In this document: one piece after another, positions 116 through 52,734 of the stretch | Layout of the letters: every line of letters begins with the position of its first letter | Numbering within the stretch: the stretch's first letter is position 1 | Source of the DNA: Minisyncoccota bacterium | Lineage (GTDB): Bacteria; Patescibacteriota; Minisyncoccia; Phycocordibacterales; SW-6-46-9 | Assembly (NCBI GenBank): GCA_040905385.1 | Contig: JBBDRP010000002.1 | Coordinates: forward strand, 395,526-459,525 | Length of the DNA stretch: 64,000 nt | Direction of reading: 5' to 3' | The notes under the pieces: model-generated | Databases searched by the model: none | What the model was told of the DNA's origin: nothing | The model's input: the letters and a program-made list of their open reading frames with translations, nothing else | Position numbers and translations under genes: made by a program

Positions 116-1357
116 ATGACGTTGCCAAAAAGCTCAGCCAAAACAGCCGTTGGAGCAATTTTCTTTTCACTTATTATATTTGGAGTTGGTTTTTACTATG
201 GAAACATTCATGAGCAGGAGTACGGCAATAATGCAAATTTACTTGATTCACGTGAGGTGACACAGGATGATGTTGATTTTGAGGTTTTTTGGGAAGCCTG
301 GAACGTGCTGAACGAAAAGTTTGTATCCCAAAGCGGTACGTCAACTGATGAGCAGTACACAGATGAGCAGAAGCGAGTCTACGGTGCTATTCAGGGAATG
401 ACTCGATCGCTTGGGGATCCGTACACTACCTTTTTGCCACCGTCTGAAAATGAGACTTTTTCCGAGACGATATCCGGTGAATTTGGAGGTGTAGGAATGG
501 AGGTAGGAAACCGGGACGGTATCATCACCATTATCTCACCACTGAAAGGTTCTCCTGCTGAGGCGGCCGGCGTGCAACCAGGAGACCGAATTCTGAAAAT
601 TGACGGTGAATCAACCGAAATAACCTCACTTCAGCGAGCGGTTCAAAAAATCCGTGGTGAGGTTGGCACAGAGGTTAGCTTAACGGTACTACGTGAAGGT
701 GAAAGTGAAACCACAGAAATCACTATTGTGCGTGATTTAATTCAGGTTCCGACTATCCATACTGAGGTTCGGGATGATGCTTTTGTGATTTCACTGTATA
801 ATTTCTCGGCTCAGTCAGCTGAGCTCTTCCGACAGGCCTTGCTCGAGTATAATGTCTCTGGTAAGGATAATCTTGTGATCGATCTGCGAAATAATGCTGG
901 TGGGTTCTTGCAGGCATCGGTTCAAATTGCTAGTTTCTTTGTAGATGAAGGTAAGGTGATTGTGGAAGAAGACTTTGGCAGCAAGCAGGAACCCCGTGTG
1001 TATCGATCACGCGGATACGATCTAGTACCAGAATCAACGAATGTTGTGGTGCTTGTGAATGGTGGAAGTGCCTCGGCTTCAGAGATTGTTGCCGGCGCAC
1101 TGCGTGACCACGGAGTTGCTCAGCTGGTTGGTACGCAGACCTTTGGTAAGGGTTCGGTACAAGAGTTGGTTGATCTGTCTGGTGAGACAGCGCTGAAGGT
1201 GACGGTCGCGCGCTGGATGACACCGAACGGTGTGTCTATCTCTGAGGGCGGGCTGGAGCCGGATGTGGTAATTGAACGGGAGGATGAAGAGGATCCAGAA
1301 GTATACTCTCAGCGACAGATTGAAAGAGCAATTCAGGTGCTGCTGAATGATAATTAA
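116..1357 (+). CDS. ctpA: Carboxyl-terminal processing (tail-specific) protease, S41 family
   Basis: N-terminal TM anchor, then PDZ-like region and S41 catalytic region with conserved blocks LRNNAGG and GGSASASEI..GTQTFGKG. Confidence 0.85.
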   Translation: MTLPKSSAKTAVGAIFFSLIIFGVGFYYGNIHEQEYGNNANLLDSREVTQDDVDFEVFWEAWNVLNEKFVSQSGTSTDEQYTDEQKRVYGAIQGMTRSLGDPYTTFLPPSENETFSETISGEFGGVGMEVGNRDGIITIISPLKGSPAEAAGVQPGDRILKIDGESTEITSLQRAVQKIRGEVGTEVSLTVLREGESETTEITIVRDLIQVPTIHTEVRDDAFVISLYNFSAQSAELFRQALLEYNVSGKDNLVIDLRNNAGGFLQASVQIASFFVDEGKVIVEEDFGSKQEPRVYRSRGYDLVPESTNVVVLVNGGSASASEIVAGALRDHGVAQLVGTQTFGKGSVQELVDLSGETALKVTVARWMTPNGVSISEGGLEPDVVIEREDEEDPEVYSQRQIERAIQVLLNDN

Positions 1358-1377
1358 TACATTAAATAAATACAGAT

Positions 1378-1923
1378 ATGAAGGTAATTCTATTACAGGA
1401 CGTTCCAAACGTAGGAAAGAAATTTCAGGAAGCTGAGGTTGCCAATGGCTATGGCAGTAACTACCTTATCCCGAATGGTCTGGCACAGGTGGCTACAGAG
1501 GAAACCTTGGCCCGTTACAGTGCTCAGCAGGAGGCTGCTGAGGCAGCTCGACAGGAAGCTCGTGAGAAGCTAGCAACAGCCGTGGAGACGATTGATGGTA
1601 GTACTGTTACCATCACCGTAGAGAATGCTGGTGATCAAGGTCAGCTATTTGCTGGTATTTATCCCCAAGACATAGCCGCGGCTGTAAATAAGGAGTTCGG
1701 TGTGGATATTGCCGGTGTGGATATTGACCGAGACGCACCAATCAGCAAGGTGGGGGAGGAAGATGTGACCGTATCAATCCTGGATACGACCGTGACTGTT
1801 ACCGTCGAGGTGACTGCAGATAACTTTACCGATGAGGCTGATCCGGATGCAGATGAGGAGGAAGTAGAAGAGTATGATGAAGATTTCGTTGATGATGAGG
1901 TCGCGGATGAAGAAGAGGAATAG
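1378..1923 (+). CDS. rplI: 50S ribosomal protein L9 with poly-acidic C-terminal tail
   Basis: N-terminal MKVILLQDVPNVGK..EV..GY..NYLIP matches the L9 signature; the C-terminal 30 aa are D/E-rich (DEADPDADEEEVEEYDEDFVDDEVADEEEE). Confidence 0.85.
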   Translation: MKVILLQDVPNVGKKFQEAEVANGYGSNYLIPNGLAQVATEETLARYSAQQEAAEAARQEAREKLATAVETIDGSTVTITVENAGDQGQLFAGIYPQDIAAAVNKEFGVDIAGVDIDRDAPISKVGEEDVTVSILDTTVTVTVEVTADNFTDEADPDADEEEVEEYDEDFVDDEVADEEEE

Positions 1924-17270: not shown

Positions 17271-17288
17271 AGTAGAAAGTCAAAAGTT
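17259..17288. repeat. Heptamer repeat array (GAAAGTC TATAAAGTA GAAAGTC AAAAGTT) spanning the stop codon of 16701..17270
   Basis: GAAAGTN family; followed by GAGTGAGTGAAACG, which resembles the start of the structured repeat units. Confidence 0.6.
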
Positions 17289-17456
17289 GAGTGAGTGAAA
17301 CGAAGGAAATCCAGCCCTAGCGTGCTGGGGCTGGATAAATGGGGAAATTTAAGGTGAGTTACTTTACAATACTGTATTTATTGTGTATTATAATAATCAG
17401 AAGCACCAAAGTTACTTAAACAATAATCCAAACTAATCAAACCAGAGAGGTTTGTT

Positions 17457-17693
17457 ATGAAAATAGAAAAAGAATTATCATTAGCCAAGACATATAGAGC
17501 AATATTCCTGATACTCTTTGTTGTCTCTGCTATCTTTGCAATTTTTGTTTTTAGTATAGAAGGTGTAAACAGTGAGTTTTTTTTGGGGCCTTTTGCACTG
17601 AGTATCCTTACGGGTTTTATGATTAAATTTATGAGTAGAGTCGTATCGGATGTAAAAAAAAGAATGAAAGCAAAAAGTACGGAAAATGCTTAA
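17457..17693 (+). CDS. Hypothetical small membrane protein (paralog 1 of 3)
   Basis: 78 aa, two TM; leader caaaccagagaggtttgttATG with the SD inside a caaacc/ggtttg hairpin; terminator at about 17705-17740. Confidence 0.4.
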   Translation: MKIEKELSLAKTYRAIFLILFVVSAIFAIFVFSIEGVNSEFFLGPFALSILTGFMIKFMSRVVSDVKKRMKAKSTENA

Positions 17694-17812
17694 ATCTATT
17701 TTTGATCCCGTTGTCTATCTAGGCAGCGGGATTTCTTTTATGTACGTGCTGTTACCCCCCCTAGCTAATAGTATTTAGCTAATGGGAACATCCGATGTTC
17801 ACATTATGTACT

Positions 17813-17950
17813 TGACTACCAAGTGAAGTGAGCGACATGCAAGCTTGCTTGCATGTCCGAACGGAGCGATGGGAGGCAGGAACCTGCTCACCAAGCGGAG
17901 TGAGTAGAATGAACGCTTGCATTTATTCTCGAGCGAAGTGCCGGCAGACA
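17813..17950. repeat. Structured repeat family, locus 2: two tandem ~70-nt units
   Basis: accaagtgaagtgagcgacatgcaagcttgcttgcatgtccgaacggagcgatgggaggcaggaacctgctc followed by accaagcggagtgagtagaatg..; homologous to locus 2056-2205 with compensatory stem changes. Confidence 0.55.
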
Positions 17951-18033
17951 AACAGATAACTATCTTCTGAGTCAAACTCAGAAGATAGGAGAGTTTTAAA
18001 CTCTTCTTGGTTTATATCTGTTATCTGTTTGAC
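17947..18033. repeat. Nested palindrome complex (gacaaacagataac [ctatcttctgag-tcaaa-ctcagaagatag][agagtt-ttaa-aactct] .. gttatctgtttgac)
   Basis: Outer 14-bp inverted repeat enclosing a perfect 12-bp-stem hairpin and a second hairpin; overlaps the -35 of the promoter for 18123. Confidence 0.5.
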
Positions 18034-18057
18034 AACACTTATAAAGTTATCTACTAT
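18029..18057 (+). promoter_or_regulatory. Sigma70-type promoter TTGACA-17-TACTAT for the small-membrane-protein genes
   Basis: Consensus -35 and a -10 identical to the one in the cargo cassette. Confidence 0.5.
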
Positions 18058-18122
18058 ATATAGCAGAAACACATAGTTCTATTAAATAAAAATCGAAATA
18101 AACCAAACCTTAGGAGGTTTGT

Positions 18123-43669: not shown

Positions 43670-44954
43670 TTTATTACAATCAGTTTTTACACTCGTTGTT
43701 GGCAGTATCTTGCTGCTTGTGCCGCTTTCCGCATGGGGACAGTCGTCTAATGAGCTGGAGGCTGAGATTGAGGAGCGCAGCGATCGAATTCGGCAGCTAG
43801 AGGAGGAGATTGGTCAGTATGAGGTCGAGCTGCAGGATACACGTCAGGAATCCTCAACGCTGCAGTCAGCAGTATCCCAACTGGACGAAAATGTTGACCG
43901 TATTTCGGGTCAAGTTGCCAACACACAGTCATCGATTAACAGGACACAGAAGGAGATTGCGAATTTAGAAGCATCAATTAGTGAAATTGAAAGGAGTATC
44001 AAGCAGAATCATTCAGCCATCGCCCAGATGGTGAAGGTAATGCAGCAGAATGATAACCAGACCTTTGTTGAGACAATTCTTAGTGCTGATACCTTTGGTC
44101 AGGCCTGGGAGCGCATTGATCAACTCCAGCAGATTCAGTCTCGTGTCCAAACCCAGCTAGAGGAGCTACGGACGAGTCGCGCCGAGCTTGCTTCTCAGCA
44201 GGCGGAGGCACAAGCCCAGCAGGCAGAGCTTCGTGGCTTACGCAGCGAGTACGCCGACCAGCAGGCGATAGTCGAGGACCAGAAACAGGAAAAGGCACGA
44301 CTGCTGGCAGCAACCAATCAGGAGGCAAGTGAGTACGAGCAGATGATTACGGAGCGGCGTCGGCTTAAAGAACAGTTTGAGGCTGAACTACGATCTTTTG
44401 AGGAGCAGCTAAACGCTCAGGCGAGTGGTGCGACGATCTCAGAGGACTCCGTGAGATTTTCCTGGCCGATCTCGCCAGTGGTGATTACGCAGCTTTTTGG
44501 TGGTACCGAGTTTGCTCGTCGTAATCCTGGTGTATACGGCCGACCATTTCATAACGGAACTGACTTTGGAGCACCAATTGGTACTCCAGTTACAGCTCCA
44601 GCCGGTGGAACTGTTCGTGGCAGTGGTAACACCGACGTTATAAGTGGCTGCTACTCATACGGTAAGTGGATTCTGGTTGATCATCCGACGGGCGTGTCGA
44701 CGCTGTATGCGCACCTATCGCAAATTGCTGTTCAACCAGGAGATCAGGTAGCCAGAGGAGATCGTATCGGTTATGTTGGAAATACCGGCTACTCGACCGG
44801 CCCGCATTTACACTTTACCGTCTACGTTCGTCAGGATGTCGAAATTGTGCGACTTGGCGATGTGAAGACGCGGACAAATTGTGCCTCAGCCGAAATACCG
44901 GTATCACCACTTGACAGTTATCTTAATCCGATGGATTATTTACCATCTAGGTAA
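43659..44954 (+). CDS. M23-family peptidase with N-terminal coiled coil (EnvC-like)
   Basis: Signal/TM, long Q/E-rich coiled coil, C-terminal HNGTDFGAPIGTPV..HLHF LytM motifs. Confidence 0.8.
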   Translation: MKANLLQSVFTLVVGSILLLVPLSAWGQSSNELEAEIEERSDRIRQLEEEIGQYEVELQDTRQESSTLQSAVSQLDENVDRISGQVANTQSSINRTQKEIANLEASISEIERSIKQNHSAIAQMVKVMQQNDNQTFVETILSADTFGQAWERIDQLQQIQSRVQTQLEELRTSRAELASQQAEAQAQQAELRGLRSEYADQQAIVEDQKQEKARLLAATNQEASEYEQMITERRRLKEQFEAELRSFEEQLNAQASGATISEDSVRFSWPISPVVITQLFGGTEFARRNPGVYGRPFHNGTDFGAPIGTPVTAPAGGTVRGSGNTDVISGCYSYGKWILVDHPTGVSTLYAHLSQIAVQPGDQVARGDRIGYVGNTGYSTGPHLHFTVYVRQDVEIVRLGDVKTRTNCASAEIPVSPLDSYLNPMDYLPSR

Positions 44955-44962
44955 TATATATT

Positions 44963-45241
44963 ATGAAGGAGTCTGGATTCATTCGTATAATTTTACTGAT
45001 TGTCGGCGTCATCATTTTACTGATGGTCAGCGGAATCGATGTTCGCGAAACAATCGAGTCAGTAGATGTTAGCAAACAGCTGGCAAATTTCCAGACGACT
45101 GCTATAAATTTTTACACCGGCCATATCCAGGAGCCACTGTATCGATTTGTGATCACACCAGCTGTGACGCTGTACGGATACATCAAACTTTACATAATAG
45201 ATGTTCTTGTTGAATTTATCCAGCAAAACACCGATATATAA
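44963..45241 (+). CDS. Hypothetical small membrane protein
   Basis: 92 aa, one TM. Confidence 0.35.
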   Translation: MKESGFIRIILLIVGVIILLMVSGIDVRETIESVDVSKQLANFQTTAINFYTGHIQEPLYRFVITPAVTLYGYIKLYIIDVLVEFIQQNTDI

Positions 45242-45249
45242 GGTTAAAA

Positions 45250-45740
45250 TACTGATACAGGAGGCAAAATCTTTTAATATCACATAATAAGGCTTATATT
45301 AGGGCTATTTCGCCCAAACGCTCTAATTTGGCCATAGCGCGGTGTTTATACGAAAGAGGTGTCCTTGCACCTATATATGGGGCAAATAAGGCTAATAAGA
45401 GCCTGAATACACGAGAGGGCGTAAATTTATGATCCGGAAAGAGGTAAATCATGCGCAGACAGAATAAAAGCGAAAGTAAAATATAAAAATAAAAATATTT
45501 AAGGTTCAGGAGGGAATCCAGAGAATATTTTCATCATAAAAATCAGCCAGATAGTTGTTGAGGGTTGAGTAATGAAAGAGAAGAGAAGGTACTGTGGATA
45601 AGAGGTAAGTGAAAGCATGTATAATGGGCGCAGTGAATAAGGTTCGCATAATTTAACTTAACCGACTATATAGGGGATATTGAATGGGTCTGAGGCTCGG
45701 ATACAATGTACATAGCTCATTCTGTTAAATCGTAAGTTCT
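45250..45740 (+). ncRNA. ORF-free purine-rich 490-bp region; candidate structured ncRNA (possibly divergent RNase P RNA)
   Basis: No ORF over 60 aa on either strand despite 490 bp; local resemblance to RNase P RNA conserved blocks (GAAAGaGGUG..AUAUGGGGCA; ACACGAGAG; GGUAAGUGAAAGCAUG..GGGCGCAG; ACAGAAU; AUAGGGG); local hairpins GGGCUAUUUCGCCC and GGUGUCCUUGCACC. Confidence 0.3.
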
Positions 45741-45744
45741 ATAT

Positions 45745-46701
45745 ATGAAAAAAAGCTCAACACCAATAATAAAGCATCTCCATGACTTTCTCGACTGGAT
45801 CGATGTCGAGAAAGGCTTGGCTTCGACGACGCAGGAAAATTACGCTCGCTTCCTGGAACGCTTTTTTCAGTGGTTGAGAAACAATGATCTTACAGACCTG
45901 AAACCACATGAGCTCTCTGAGGATCATGTCTGGAAGTATCGTATTTATTTGGCTCGATACGCTAAAGGAACCGGATCCGAGGGGTTAAAGCGTAGCACCC
46001 AGCAGTACTACCTAATTGGCTTGCGGAGTCTGCTGCGATACTTTACCAAACGTGACATTACTTCCCTTCCCCCGGATAAAATTACGTTACCGAAGGATGA
46101 TACTGGTGATGAGGTACGAAACCTGACCATTGATCAGTTAAAAAAGATTTTTAAAGCACCAGATGTATCTACCAAAAGCGGTCTGCGAGATCGGACAATC
46201 CTGGAGACCTTTTTCTCTACCGGTATGCGAATATCTGAGCTGGTAGCTTTAGATAAGAAGCAGATTTCAAGTTCTATAAATAAAGACGAGCTGGAGCTGA
46301 GTATTACTGGTAAAGGTAGAAAAACTCGAACCGTTTACTTTTCGCCCCGAGCTCTGAAGTGGCTCGGCCGGTACCTGCAGTCACGCAAGGATGATGAGCC
46401 TGCCTTGTTTGTTAACTACCGAGCACCAAAGGATGCGTCACGGCGTCTGACACCTCGTTCAATTCAAAAACGGGTAAAAAAATATGCCGTATCCGCCGGT
46501 CTCCCGCAGGACACGACACCGCACGTGCTTCGACACTCTTTTGCAACAGATCTGCTGCGAAAAGGTGTTGATATCCGTATTCTGCAGGAGTTTCTCGGTC
46601 ACAGTAGTATTACAGCAACCCAGATATACACTCATGTAACCGACAAGCAGCTGCGGGATATACACGGTAAATTTCATGGTGGTGATGAACTAGATGAGTA
46701 G
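45745..46701 (+). CDS. xerC: Tyrosine site-specific recombinase, XerC/XerD type
   Basis: RISELVAL (Arg I), HVLRHSFATDLL (HxxR), LGHSSITATQIYTHV (catalytic Tyr). Confidence 0.85.
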   Translation: MKKSSTPIIKHLHDFLDWIDVEKGLASTTQENYARFLERFFQWLRNNDLTDLKPHELSEDHVWKYRIYLARYAKGTGSEGLKRSTQQYYLIGLRSLLRYFTKRDITSLPPDKITLPKDDTGDEVRNLTIDQLKKIFKAPDVSTKSGLRDRTILETFFSTGMRISELVALDKKQISSSINKDELELSITGKGRKTRTVYFSPRALKWLGRYLQSRKDDEPALFVNYRAPKDASRRLTPRSIQKRVKKYAVSAGLPQDTTPHVLRHSFATDLLRKGVDIRILQEFLGHSSITATQIYTHVTDKQLRDIHGKFHGGDELDE

Positions 46702-46705
46702 ACTG

Positions 46706-46918
46706 TTATGCAACATCAAAATTTTCCCACCATGGCATGGCGATGTATAGAAAAGCAACCATAGGCACTAGAAAAATTCCGGTAAAGATTTTTACTGGTA
46801 CACTGGTGGTCTCCCAGCTGGGCTTTACCAGGTCAAGAAAGATTCCCATCGGAATGATGATAAAGCCTGATACGCCCTTAATAACGGCGCGTATGAATAT
46901 TTTGAGATTTTCTGACAT
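46706..46918 (-). CDS. Hypothetical small membrane protein
   Basis: 70 aa, two TM. Confidence 0.35.
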   Translation of the reverse strand: MSENLKIFIRAVIKGVSGFIIIPMGIFLDLVKPSWETTSVPVKIFTGIFLVPMVAFLYIAMPWWENFDVA

Positions 46919-47185
46919 ATTTATATTATATAAGGTGTAGTATAGATTGTCAAACTAATAATCCATAACGTATAACGCAAATCTTGTAGCGAAAAAAACC
47001 GCCTAATTTAGAGATATGAGCACCTTCCTTCATAAATCTATAAGACCGCGATTATAAATCGTAGTCGCTAACTCAAAGCAGCCCAGTTGTTTTTACGTGC
47101 CTTATACTAAAGTCGAATTTGGTACTTCCCTACTAAATCGTGTATACAGTAAAAGTTAAGGTAGGTTACCTTCAATGCGAATGTT

Positions 47186-51816: not shown

Positions 51817-52734
51817 TTAGTCGTCTATTTCGAGGTCAAGGTCAAGTAAGTACTCAACAGCGTCAGTTACGATCGGCATAATATCGTCGTAAAAATTAAG
51901 ATCCACAATCTCTGTAAGCGGAAACCACTTAGCATCGTCAAGACCACCTTTATCCTTAGGAAGCTGTAGCTTTCCGTAGTCTGCCGAGGCCAGATAGTAG
52001 GTCACCTGTTTGCGGATCTTGCCTTTGTCCGGATCAGCGGCAACGTACTCATTTTCACCTAGTTTATTTTCCAGCGTTATTTCTAAACCAATTTCTTCCT
52101 CAACCTTGCGCTGAATCTCCTCTCTTGTGTCTTCACTATCAAGGTGTCCTTTTGACAGCGTCCAGTGTCCAAAAACGTCATGCACAAGCGCAAGTTCGAT
52201 GTTACCGTTGTTTTCAGCGTAGACCACTGCCCCACCCAGCCGCTCGATTGGCATTTCTTCGTACGGAATATCCTTGATATTACTGGCCGAGCTTTGATCC
52301 TTTTCTGGCTCCCCGATTTCCTTGTAAACAGCCCCGATTACGCCGTTCACAAAGGAACCACTAGCATCACCTCCGTACCCCTTCGCCAGCTCAATTGCCT
52401 CATTAATAGCAACTTTTGGTGGAACATCTTCACGGTCTGCATACAGTAGTTCAAACAGGCCAATACGCAGAATATTACGATCAACCGTCGTAATTTTTTC
52501 CAGTGGCCAGTGTGGTGCCGCTGATGAAATAACTTCATTAAGATCTTCGAGATGCTCAACAACACCATTGAGAAGTTCGTATATATATGAGTAGTCCTCA
52601 AGACCAGGTGCAAACTCGTAAGCATTGCGCTCTAGTGCGGATAATAGCTCGGGCTGCGTATATGACTGGCCGCGAAAATCCCACTCGAAGAGCGTTTGCA
52701 TTACTACTGAGCGTGAGACATGTCGATTTGCCAT
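51817..52734 (-). CDS. nusB: NusB antitermination factor fused to a C-terminal Nudix hydrolase domain
   Basis: Residues about 1-140: LRIGLFELLYADREDVPPKVAINEAIELAKGYGGDASGSFVNGVIG (NusB). Residues about 170-300: GHLDSEDTREEIQRKVEEEIGL, a near-canonical Nudix box (GX4EX7RKUXEEXGU). Confidence 0.7.
   Translation of the reverse strand: MANRHVSRSVVMQTLFEWDFRGQSYTQPELLSALERNAYEFAPGLEDYSYIYELLNGVVEHLEDLNEVISSAAPHWPLEKITTVDRNILRIGLFELLYADREDVPPKVAINEAIELAKGYGGDASGSFVNGVIGAVYKEIGEPEKDQSSASNIKDIPYEEMPIERLGGAVVYAENNGNIELALVHDVFGHWTLSKGHLDSEDTREEIQRKVEEEIGLEITLENKLGENEYVAADPDKGKIRKQVTYYLASADYGKLQLPKDKGGLDDAKWFPLTEIVDLNFYDDIMPIVTDAVEYLLDLDLEIDD

Follow-up and report, generated by a model that had tools for sequence, protein, structure and literature searches.

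A candidate dif/xer module at the terminus of replication in a Candidatus Paceibacterota chromosome

We describe a 28 bp dif-like site (45641–45668, plus strand) in a 503 bp intergenic gap (45242–45744) that lies directly before the gene for a Xer-family tyrosine recombinase (xer; 45745–46701, plus strand). Both are contained in a 64,000-nucleotide stretch of DNA, here called the window, from a bacterium of the Candidate Phyla Radiation (CPR), and the gap is the terminus-proximal intergenic region of this Candidatus Paceibacterota chromosome. We propose, and would put the probability at roughly three in four, that the 28-mer is the target of Xer and the chromosome dimer-resolution site. Together the site and xer look like a single-recombinase dif/xer module, a kind of system that is known and whose occurrence in CPR bacteria is apparently new; a literature search found no paper combining dif, Xer and CPR or Patescibacteria within the library searched. 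What we establish here is the sequence architecture of the site, its conservation, its linkage to xer, its position at the terminus and the existence of a phage-borne copy.

For comparison, the syntenic loci of relatives were retrieved by means of the recombinase, and the gap was then aligned and found to fall into three parts. As a whole the gap is a composite of a conserved element (Block A), a purine-rich spacer, the dif-like site and the xer promoter.

The dif-like site and its recombinase

The site has the 11-6-11 layout of a recombination site, with a left arm GGTTCGCATAA, a centre TTTAAC and a right arm TTAACCGACTA. Nothing else in the gap is as well conserved, the adjoining DNA being unalignable between relatives. 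An 18-nt core, TCGCATAATTTAASTTAA, is without substitution (0/18) in 11 lineages whose Xer proteins are 64–93% identical to that of the window, including loci labelled Colwellbacteria and Jorgensenbacteria, and in all 11 it is found upstream of xer and co-oriented with it. Two changes in the core are seen in a Wildermuthbacteria locus (L158) and one in a locus labelled Magasanikbacteria (L160). The left arm is identical (11/11) to the XerC arm of Erwinia dif in the list of Carnoy and Roten, and matches the E. coli arm at 10 of 11 positions. The two arms are imperfect inverted repeats of one another, with 5–9 of 11 matches across 16 lineages, and the outer bases co-vary in both arms between lineages (ACGTC/GACGT, ACTTCG/CGAAGT and GTTCG/CGAAC). 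A variant clade, at 70–76% Xer identity, carries ACTTCGCTTTT-TATATG-TAAAGAGAAGT at the same position and with the same geometry, its arms being palindromic at 9 of 11 positions. In the consensus, ..tTCGcATAA TTtaA. TTAA..gA..., the inner arms are better kept than the centre and the outer ends. Carnoy and Roten found the central region of dif to be less conserved between species than the inner arms, and the Wildermuthbacteria site, which keeps both arms around a different centre (TTATAC), fits this rule.

Copy number, like the position of the terminus, was read within the 64-kb window, where a search allowing up to three mismatches finds the site once; each related locus also has one copy. The linkage to xer is kept where the upstream context is new, as in one relative in which the site follows pspC (L023) and in another in which it follows a divergent mur ligase gene (L026), the site starting 33–35 nt before the xer start codon in these two. 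In Jorgensenbacteria (L028–L030; 3590–5948 in L028) we observed tandem Xer-like genes, encoding proteins of 454 aa and then 315 aa. In L028 the site ends 6 nt (and starts 34 nt) upstream of the 454-aa Xer-like gene, and xer follows. Two recombinases may be at work in this lineage, or a single one with an accessory paralogue.

We also considered whether the site could be part of a small protein gene, and rejected this. A minus-strand open reading frame (ORF) beginning at an ATG within the site (TTATGCGAA) recurs in relatives, yet its products range from 21 to 88 aa and are unrelated in sequence; one relative (L008) reads the site in another frame, and plus-strand mini-ORFs behind Shine-Dalgarno-like runs are not kept.

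The 318-aa product of xer, a complete recombinase, was assigned to the Xer family of tyrosine recombinases by Pfam, NCBIfam and structure comparison. It matches the Pfam family Phage_integrase (1e-40) together with SAM-like N-terminal domains, and the box motifs TGMRISE, HVLRH, LGHS and IYTH, the last with the tyrosine, are seen in the alignment. The NCBIfam models score it almost alike as XerC (222.4 bits; TIGR02224 cut-off 335.15) and XerD (217.1 bits; TIGR02225 cut-off 329.6), followed by XerA (195 bits against a cut-off of 220) and XerS (125 against 267). By these scores we would place it in the Xer family and outside the XerC, XerD, XerA and XerS equivalog groups. The closest solved structure in a PDB search is E. 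coli XerD (1a0p), with XerH far behind at 59 bits. Orthologues more than 60% identical are found across many Paceibacteria, as expected of a core function, and the protein of the window is 100% identical to a protein (P0001) from a metagenome-assembled genome (MAG) at NCBI, although a look-up of the exact protein gave no record. Downstream, a small ORF without family match is convergent with xer (46706–46918, minus strand), and ORFs of 75–78 aa directly follow xer in most syntenic relatives.

In the mechanism that we envisage, recombination between sister chromosomes would leave a dimer, in which two copies of the 28 bp site could be brought together. One Xer monomer would occupy each 11 bp arm, and the resulting tetramer would exchange strands across the 6 bp centre by means of the catalytic tyrosine, thereby resolving the dimer. 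As there is one xer beside the site and the arms are diverged inverted copies of a half-site TCGnnTAA, the same protein probably binds both. The invariant left arm would then be a strong site and the variable right arm a weak one, and this inequality would decide which strand is cleaved first, as it does for XerS and XerH.

Position at the terminus and a copy on a phage contig

Cumulative G-C provides further insight into the setting of the site. It rises from position 1 of the window to about 45750, where a plateau begins that extends to about 47000 with a maximum at 46319, and then falls. We read this plateau and maximum (45750–47000) as the replication terminus. Plus-strand genes predominate as far as about 47.9 kb and minus-strand genes after 48.0 kb; because gene strand and skew are thereby confounded, GC skew was also measured at third codon positions (GC3 skew) on the plus strand of the window. 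To the left of the switch it is +0.21 for plus-strand genes and +0.24 for minus-strand genes, and to the right it is -0.11 for minus-strand genes and -0.01 for plus-strand genes. The sign of the GC3 skew is set by the side of the switch at about 46–48 kb and not by gene strand, and it follows that two replication forks converge here. The dif-like site is at this terminus; Kono et al., and Carnoy and Roten, located dif sites at the GC-skew shift point.

Short sequences with a polarity toward the site are also present. GAGAAGG points toward the dif-like site in 22 cases and away from it in 2 over the window, and still by 5:1 inside counter-oriented genes, which makes it the best of 72 skewed 7-mers. 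The 8-mer GAGAAGGT is the most replichore-polar of the window (9:1 toward the site). The nearest copy of GAGAAGG is 50 nt to the left of the site (49 nt for the 8-mer, at 45583–45590), or 58 nt when counted from start to start. GAGAAGG(T) resembles the recognition sequence of B. subtilis SpoIIIE, and GAGAAGG is a candidate motif for orienting FtsK or SpoIIIE, similar to FtsK-orienting polar sequences (KOPS) or SpoIIIE recognition sequences (SRS). We treat it as a lead only; in the short flanks available from relatives the count is 14:9 and the polarity is not seen.

A copy of the site is carried by a phage contig (IMGVR_UViG_3300028304_000144), which contains a 38-nt sequence identical to that at the dif-like site of one relative (L022). 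The copy is placed at 24–41 on the minus strand; it stops 23 nt short of the contig end and lies about 440 nt past the phage integrase gene (int; 484–1578, minus strand), whose 364-aa product is 28% identical to the Xer of the window. Other genes on this contig encode a tail tube protein and tape-measure-like, HK97 gp10-like and Mu F-like proteins. The copy probably marks the junction of a prophage with the host site, or else belongs to an attP mimicking that site, and in both cases the sequence of the site would be one at which site-specific recombination takes place in nature. Mimicry of dif by mobile elements is known to follow from the function of dif, and the dif of Legionella (XerL) was found through such an element, a clue that the phage copy described here parallels. 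The contig is a possible phage–host link for Paceibacteria. No phage copies of the variant-clade site were found. A scan of viral contigs with a 15-nt pattern was too unspecific to use.

Alternative readings and the rest of the gap

Several points weigh against the site being a dimer-resolution site. Its right arm shares just 4 of 11 positions with the canonical XerD arm, and its two arms agree with one another at only 6 of 11 in the window. What can be said of the copy number of the site, of further xer genes, of ftsK and of the origin is confined to 64 kb of a contig of roughly 784 kb, and binding, catalysis and recombination at the site are predicted from the family of its recombinase. A conserved TATAAT upstream means that the site is possibly transcribed, which makes a role as RNA possible; the hairpin that the site itself could form is very weak (-1.5 kcal/mol, z = +0.19). 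The sequence is also compatible with a xer operator or promoter element or with a phage attB, roles that are not mutually exclusive. Finally, the dif reading leaves most of the 490 bp, that is Block A and the spacer, unexplained.

The gap is bordered on its left by an ORF encoding a 92-aa membrane-like protein (44963–45241, plus strand) and on its right by xer. The 92-aa ORF is the last gene of a FtsW-MurG-GltX-M23 peptidase row, matches no Pfam or NCBIfam family, and contains a 24-nt tandem duplication (79% identical) at 44987–45034. The order FtsW-MurG-GltX-M23-small ORF-gap-xer is kept across the lineage, with gaps of 400–590 bp in syntenic relatives. An initial annotation had described the region as free of ORFs and purine-rich, and we find both to be so. 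A scan of both strands found no ORF of at least 60 aa in the 503 bp, and the shorter ones (34 aa on the plus strand; 39, 47 and 52 aa on the minus strand) keep neither their length nor their sequence in relatives. The plus strand is 60% purine over the gap, ranking 1324th of 63511 490-nt windows, and 69% purine over 45378–45643, and no other intergenic gap of the 64-kb window is as purine-rich. The same annotation had overstated the rarity of such gaps in speaking of almost no intergenic space; about 12% of the window is intergenic on a rough gene list, and six other gaps measure 388–852 nt. The longest apparent gap (852 nt, 17271–18122) has no ORF of at least 80 aa and no Rfam match at gathering score. 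Elsewhere in the window an unusual 305-aa fusion (51817–52734, minus strand) joins an N-terminal NusB domain to a C-terminal NUDIX hydrolase domain.

Block A (45282–45377, plus strand) is a conserved element, about 96 nt long, that consists of a near-palindromic box, CTTATATTAG (45293–45302; pattern CTnAnnTTAG), followed by the hairpins H1 (45302–45315), which is poorly kept, H2 (45319–45341) and H3 (45358–45371; GGTGT/GCACC). A further hairpin, H4 (45390–45403; GGCT-AATAAG-AGCC), is situated just 3' of the element; H1, H3 and H4 are the three hairpins that had been reported earlier, and all are present. H2 has the pattern CGCTCTA-ATTTGSCCN-TAGAGCG, in which the loop ATTTGCCCG is conserved. 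In the window its arms are CGCTCTA and TAGCGCG with flanks AAA and GTTT, giving a 7 bp stem with one mismatch and a 9-nt loop, and it is followed by GTGTTTAT; a consensus terminator scan made no call there. With nhmmer, Block A is recovered at E = 1e-14 to 1e-26 in relatives of 78–93% Xer identity, more weakly at 76% and marginally at 70%.

In three loci (L035–L037; for example 278–2443 in L036) an inserted ORF of 721 aa without Pfam match separates Block A from the small membrane-like ORF, which suggests that the terminus-proximal gap is perhaps an insertion hotspot. Block A keeps to the xer side of this insertion in L036, and its position downstream of the inserted gene is consistent with a terminator. 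In two further relatives (L020 and L024) other stems stand at the position of H2, each followed by a run of 5–6 T, and this replacement favours a terminator, possibly bidirectional, of the upstream operon. Most likely, Block A carries a predicted terminator of the FtsW-MurG-GltX-M23 operon together with some further conserved signal. Two features argue against a simple terminator, namely the conserved H2 loop, which terminators do not need, and the weak T-run in the window. We rejected the idea that Block A is a decayed second dif, as it does not vary in step with the dif variants.

A different explanation would make Block A, alone or together with the spacer, either a small RNA particular to the lineage or the long, structured 5' leader of xer, transcribed from a -10-like box, TTATATT, at 45295–45301. 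Its conservation equals that of coding sequence, the H2 loop included, and the changes in H3 on the plus strand are of the RNA type (G-C, G-U and A-U at one pair; U-G, C-G and U-A at the next). All relatives share the strand-specific purine bias of the spacer, and the segment 45282–45404, when compared with shuffled sequences, folds better on the plus strand (z = -2.26) than on the minus strand (z = -1.21). However, that value arises from a long-range stem between the first box and H4, which is significant in only 2 of 8 relatives; pairing of H4 with the box at 45290–45302 is strong only in the window and in L031, and H4 itself pairs in 53% of cells across the 8 relatives. Within H2, H3 and H4 there is no pair in which both partners have changed, and covariation is at the level of shuffles, while RNAalifold gives a consensus energy for Block A of only -3.6 kcal/mol. 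The exchange of H2 for unrelated stems with T-runs is terminator-like, and lineages with less than about 70% Xer identity lack the element. For these reasons we consider an RNA at Block A unlikely.

The candidate xer promoter (45680–45707, plus strand), identified by a promoter scan, has a -35 box TTGAAT and a -10 box TACAAT separated by a 16-nt spacer, and the -10 pattern T-A-n-A-n-T is invariant in an alignment of 5 sequences. The site is 11 nt upstream of this -35 box (40 nt from the site midpoint to the start of the box), and in other lineages it is 30–40 nt from the start codon, nearly abutting xer. A TATAAT box (45620–45625, plus strand) lies 15 nt upstream of the site, with similar hexamers (TATAAT, TACAAT, TAGAAT, TAAAAT) at the equivalent spot in L008, L013, L002, L009, L021 and L024, and could be a second promoter that reads through the site. 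Given this proximity to the promoter or start codon, Xer bound at the site may also repress its own gene, and such autoregulation seems plausible. Less probable than an RNA at Block A is that the 28-mer serves xer only as an operator or as part of its promoter, or serves a phage only as attachment site, and has no part in dimer resolution. This reading draws on the location of the site within 30–130 nt of the xer start in most lineages, on the hexamer CATAAT that it contains, and on the phage copy beside the phage's own integrase. An operator, however, would not be expected to match a XerC arm at 11 of 11 positions or to have the 11-6-11 layout, nor does it need to be positioned at the skew switch. 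Moreover, the site in L028 precedes a different gene, that of the 454-aa Xer-like protein, and phage copies would follow from dif function itself. We continue to regard the 28-mer as a probable dimer-resolution site, whether or not it also serves xer expression.

The purine-rich spacer (45378–45640, plus strand; 69% purine, 10% C) cannot be aligned between relatives, and its composition and length recur across 8 lineages (252–312 nt, 61–71% purine, 9–17% C). It contains no ORF conserved in relatives, its two halves show no folding signal (z = -0.74 and -1.60), and a phasing of A-tracts at 10–11 bp was not supported in the window (p ~0.28) and is inconsistent among relatives. The initial annotation had offered, as a fallback, a recombination site region for the adjacent recombinase. 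This agrees with our results for the 3' end, the last 100 bp, which hold the site at 45641–45668, and not for the purine-rich body, which is the least conserved part. A very speculative extension of the dimer-resolution reading, to which we would give little weight, is that Block A and the spacer are accessory DNA for the dif-like site, with a bound protein or a DNA wrap on its left-arm side by analogy with cer and psi. In a variant of this idea the spacer could hold the last FtsK-orienting purine motif, GAGAAGGT. Were it true, accessory DNA would give Xer resolution selectivity without the usual FtsK control in bacteria with tiny genomes.

That the gap encodes RNase P RNA, as was initially suggested, or another large known RNA such as transfer-messenger RNA (tmRNA), signal recognition particle (SRP) RNA or 6S RNA, we judge to have next to no chance of being correct, as far as covariance models and other sequence analysis can tell. 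All that speaks for it is short blocks matched by eye and three small hairpins. A covariance-model search (cmscan) with all 4227 Rfam families, using permissive filters, matched nothing in 44900–46000 at E<=10, and the homologous gaps of seven relatives had no relevant Rfam match. Over the whole window, cmscan at gathering score found two tRNA-Ala genes and nothing else; ARAGORN agreed on the tRNAs and found no tmRNA, and no tmRNA, SRP RNA or 6S RNA model matched near the gap. Over its full length the gap is no more stably folded than shuffled sequences (z = -0.11 on the plus strand and +0.72 on the minus strand). Of the four supposed RNase P blocks, three lie within the spacer (about 45410–45447 and 45605–45633), which is unalignable between relatives of 78–93% Xer identity, the opposite of what is expected for universal RNase P segments. 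A sub-threshold Rfam match in one relative (L021, 8267–8499, plus strand), to Rickettsia sRNA47, reaches 34.5 bits (E = 3e-5) where the gathering score is 60; it lies within or close to a CtpB-like protease gene and is probably due to chance. We likewise rejected a pseudogene or mobile-element remnant, the gap having no blastn similarity to phage or plasmid collections, and an element in the style of bridge RNA or guide RNA, as its neighbour is a core syntenic Xer-type tyrosine recombinase and not an IS110-type enzyme.

Implications and comparison with known Xer systems

CPR bacteria, or Patescibacteria, have not been cultured or are difficult to grow, and most of what is said of their chromosome biology has been deduced. 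A dif/xer module of the kind proposed here would provide a terminus marker for Paceibacteria genomes and MAGs, of use in checks of assembly and replichores; the present analysis also removes a false RNase P candidate. Reduced CPR genomes may resolve dimers with one Xer that works on a site with a canonical left arm and a non-canonical right arm, and the pair would be a compact system for asking how one recombinase reads two unequal arms. The site is also a likely integration hotspot for CPR phages and may help to link phages to their hosts.

Adjacency of site and gene has been described as typical of single-recombinase Xer systems (PMC5357621). The closest parallel is difSL/XerS of streptococci and lactococci, where, according to the part of that review which reports Le Bourgeois 2007, the site is directly upstream of xerS at the terminus. 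The module of the window shares this arrangement, with the site just upstream of the recombinase gene at the terminus and with unequal, imperfect arms. It differs in the length of the recombinase (318 aa, against 356 aa for XerS) and in its score with the XerS model, which is below the cut-off as given above. Whereas difSL has 31 bp and an 11 bp centre, the site here has 28 bp and a 6 bp centre, and the arms of the two are unrelated (TTTCCGAAAA against TTCGCATAA). It would thus work like a XerS/difSL module and is not a member of that group.

With canonical proteobacterial XerCD/dif (28 bp, GGTGCGCATAA-TGTATA-TTATGTTAAAT) the site has in common the 11-6-11 layout, the AT-rich centre, the position where GC skew shifts, and a left arm equal to the Erwinia XerC arm. 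In contrast to that system, the right arm agrees poorly with the XerD arm, a single xer is seen beside the site, and its product scores nearly equally as XerC and XerD, below both cut-offs. The xer genes of organisms with XerCD are usually not adjacent to dif, unlike the gene described here. XerH/difH of Helicobacter and Campylobacter, XerA/dif of archaea and XerL/dif of Legionellales also resolve dimers with a single recombinase, and difH too is near its own gene. The site sequences of these systems differ from ours, and the protein of the window scores only 59 bits in the comparison with XerH and falls short of the XerA cut-off. Finally, the plasmid sites cer and psi have accessory sequences of about 180 bp, to which the conserved element and the stretch of near-constant length on the left-arm side may be compared by analogy only. 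Unlike cer and psi, the site described here is a chromosomal terminus site, in whose flank no boxes for accessory proteins and no consistent DNA-bending signal were identified, and its likeness is rather to the modules in which one recombinase is encoded beside its own dif.

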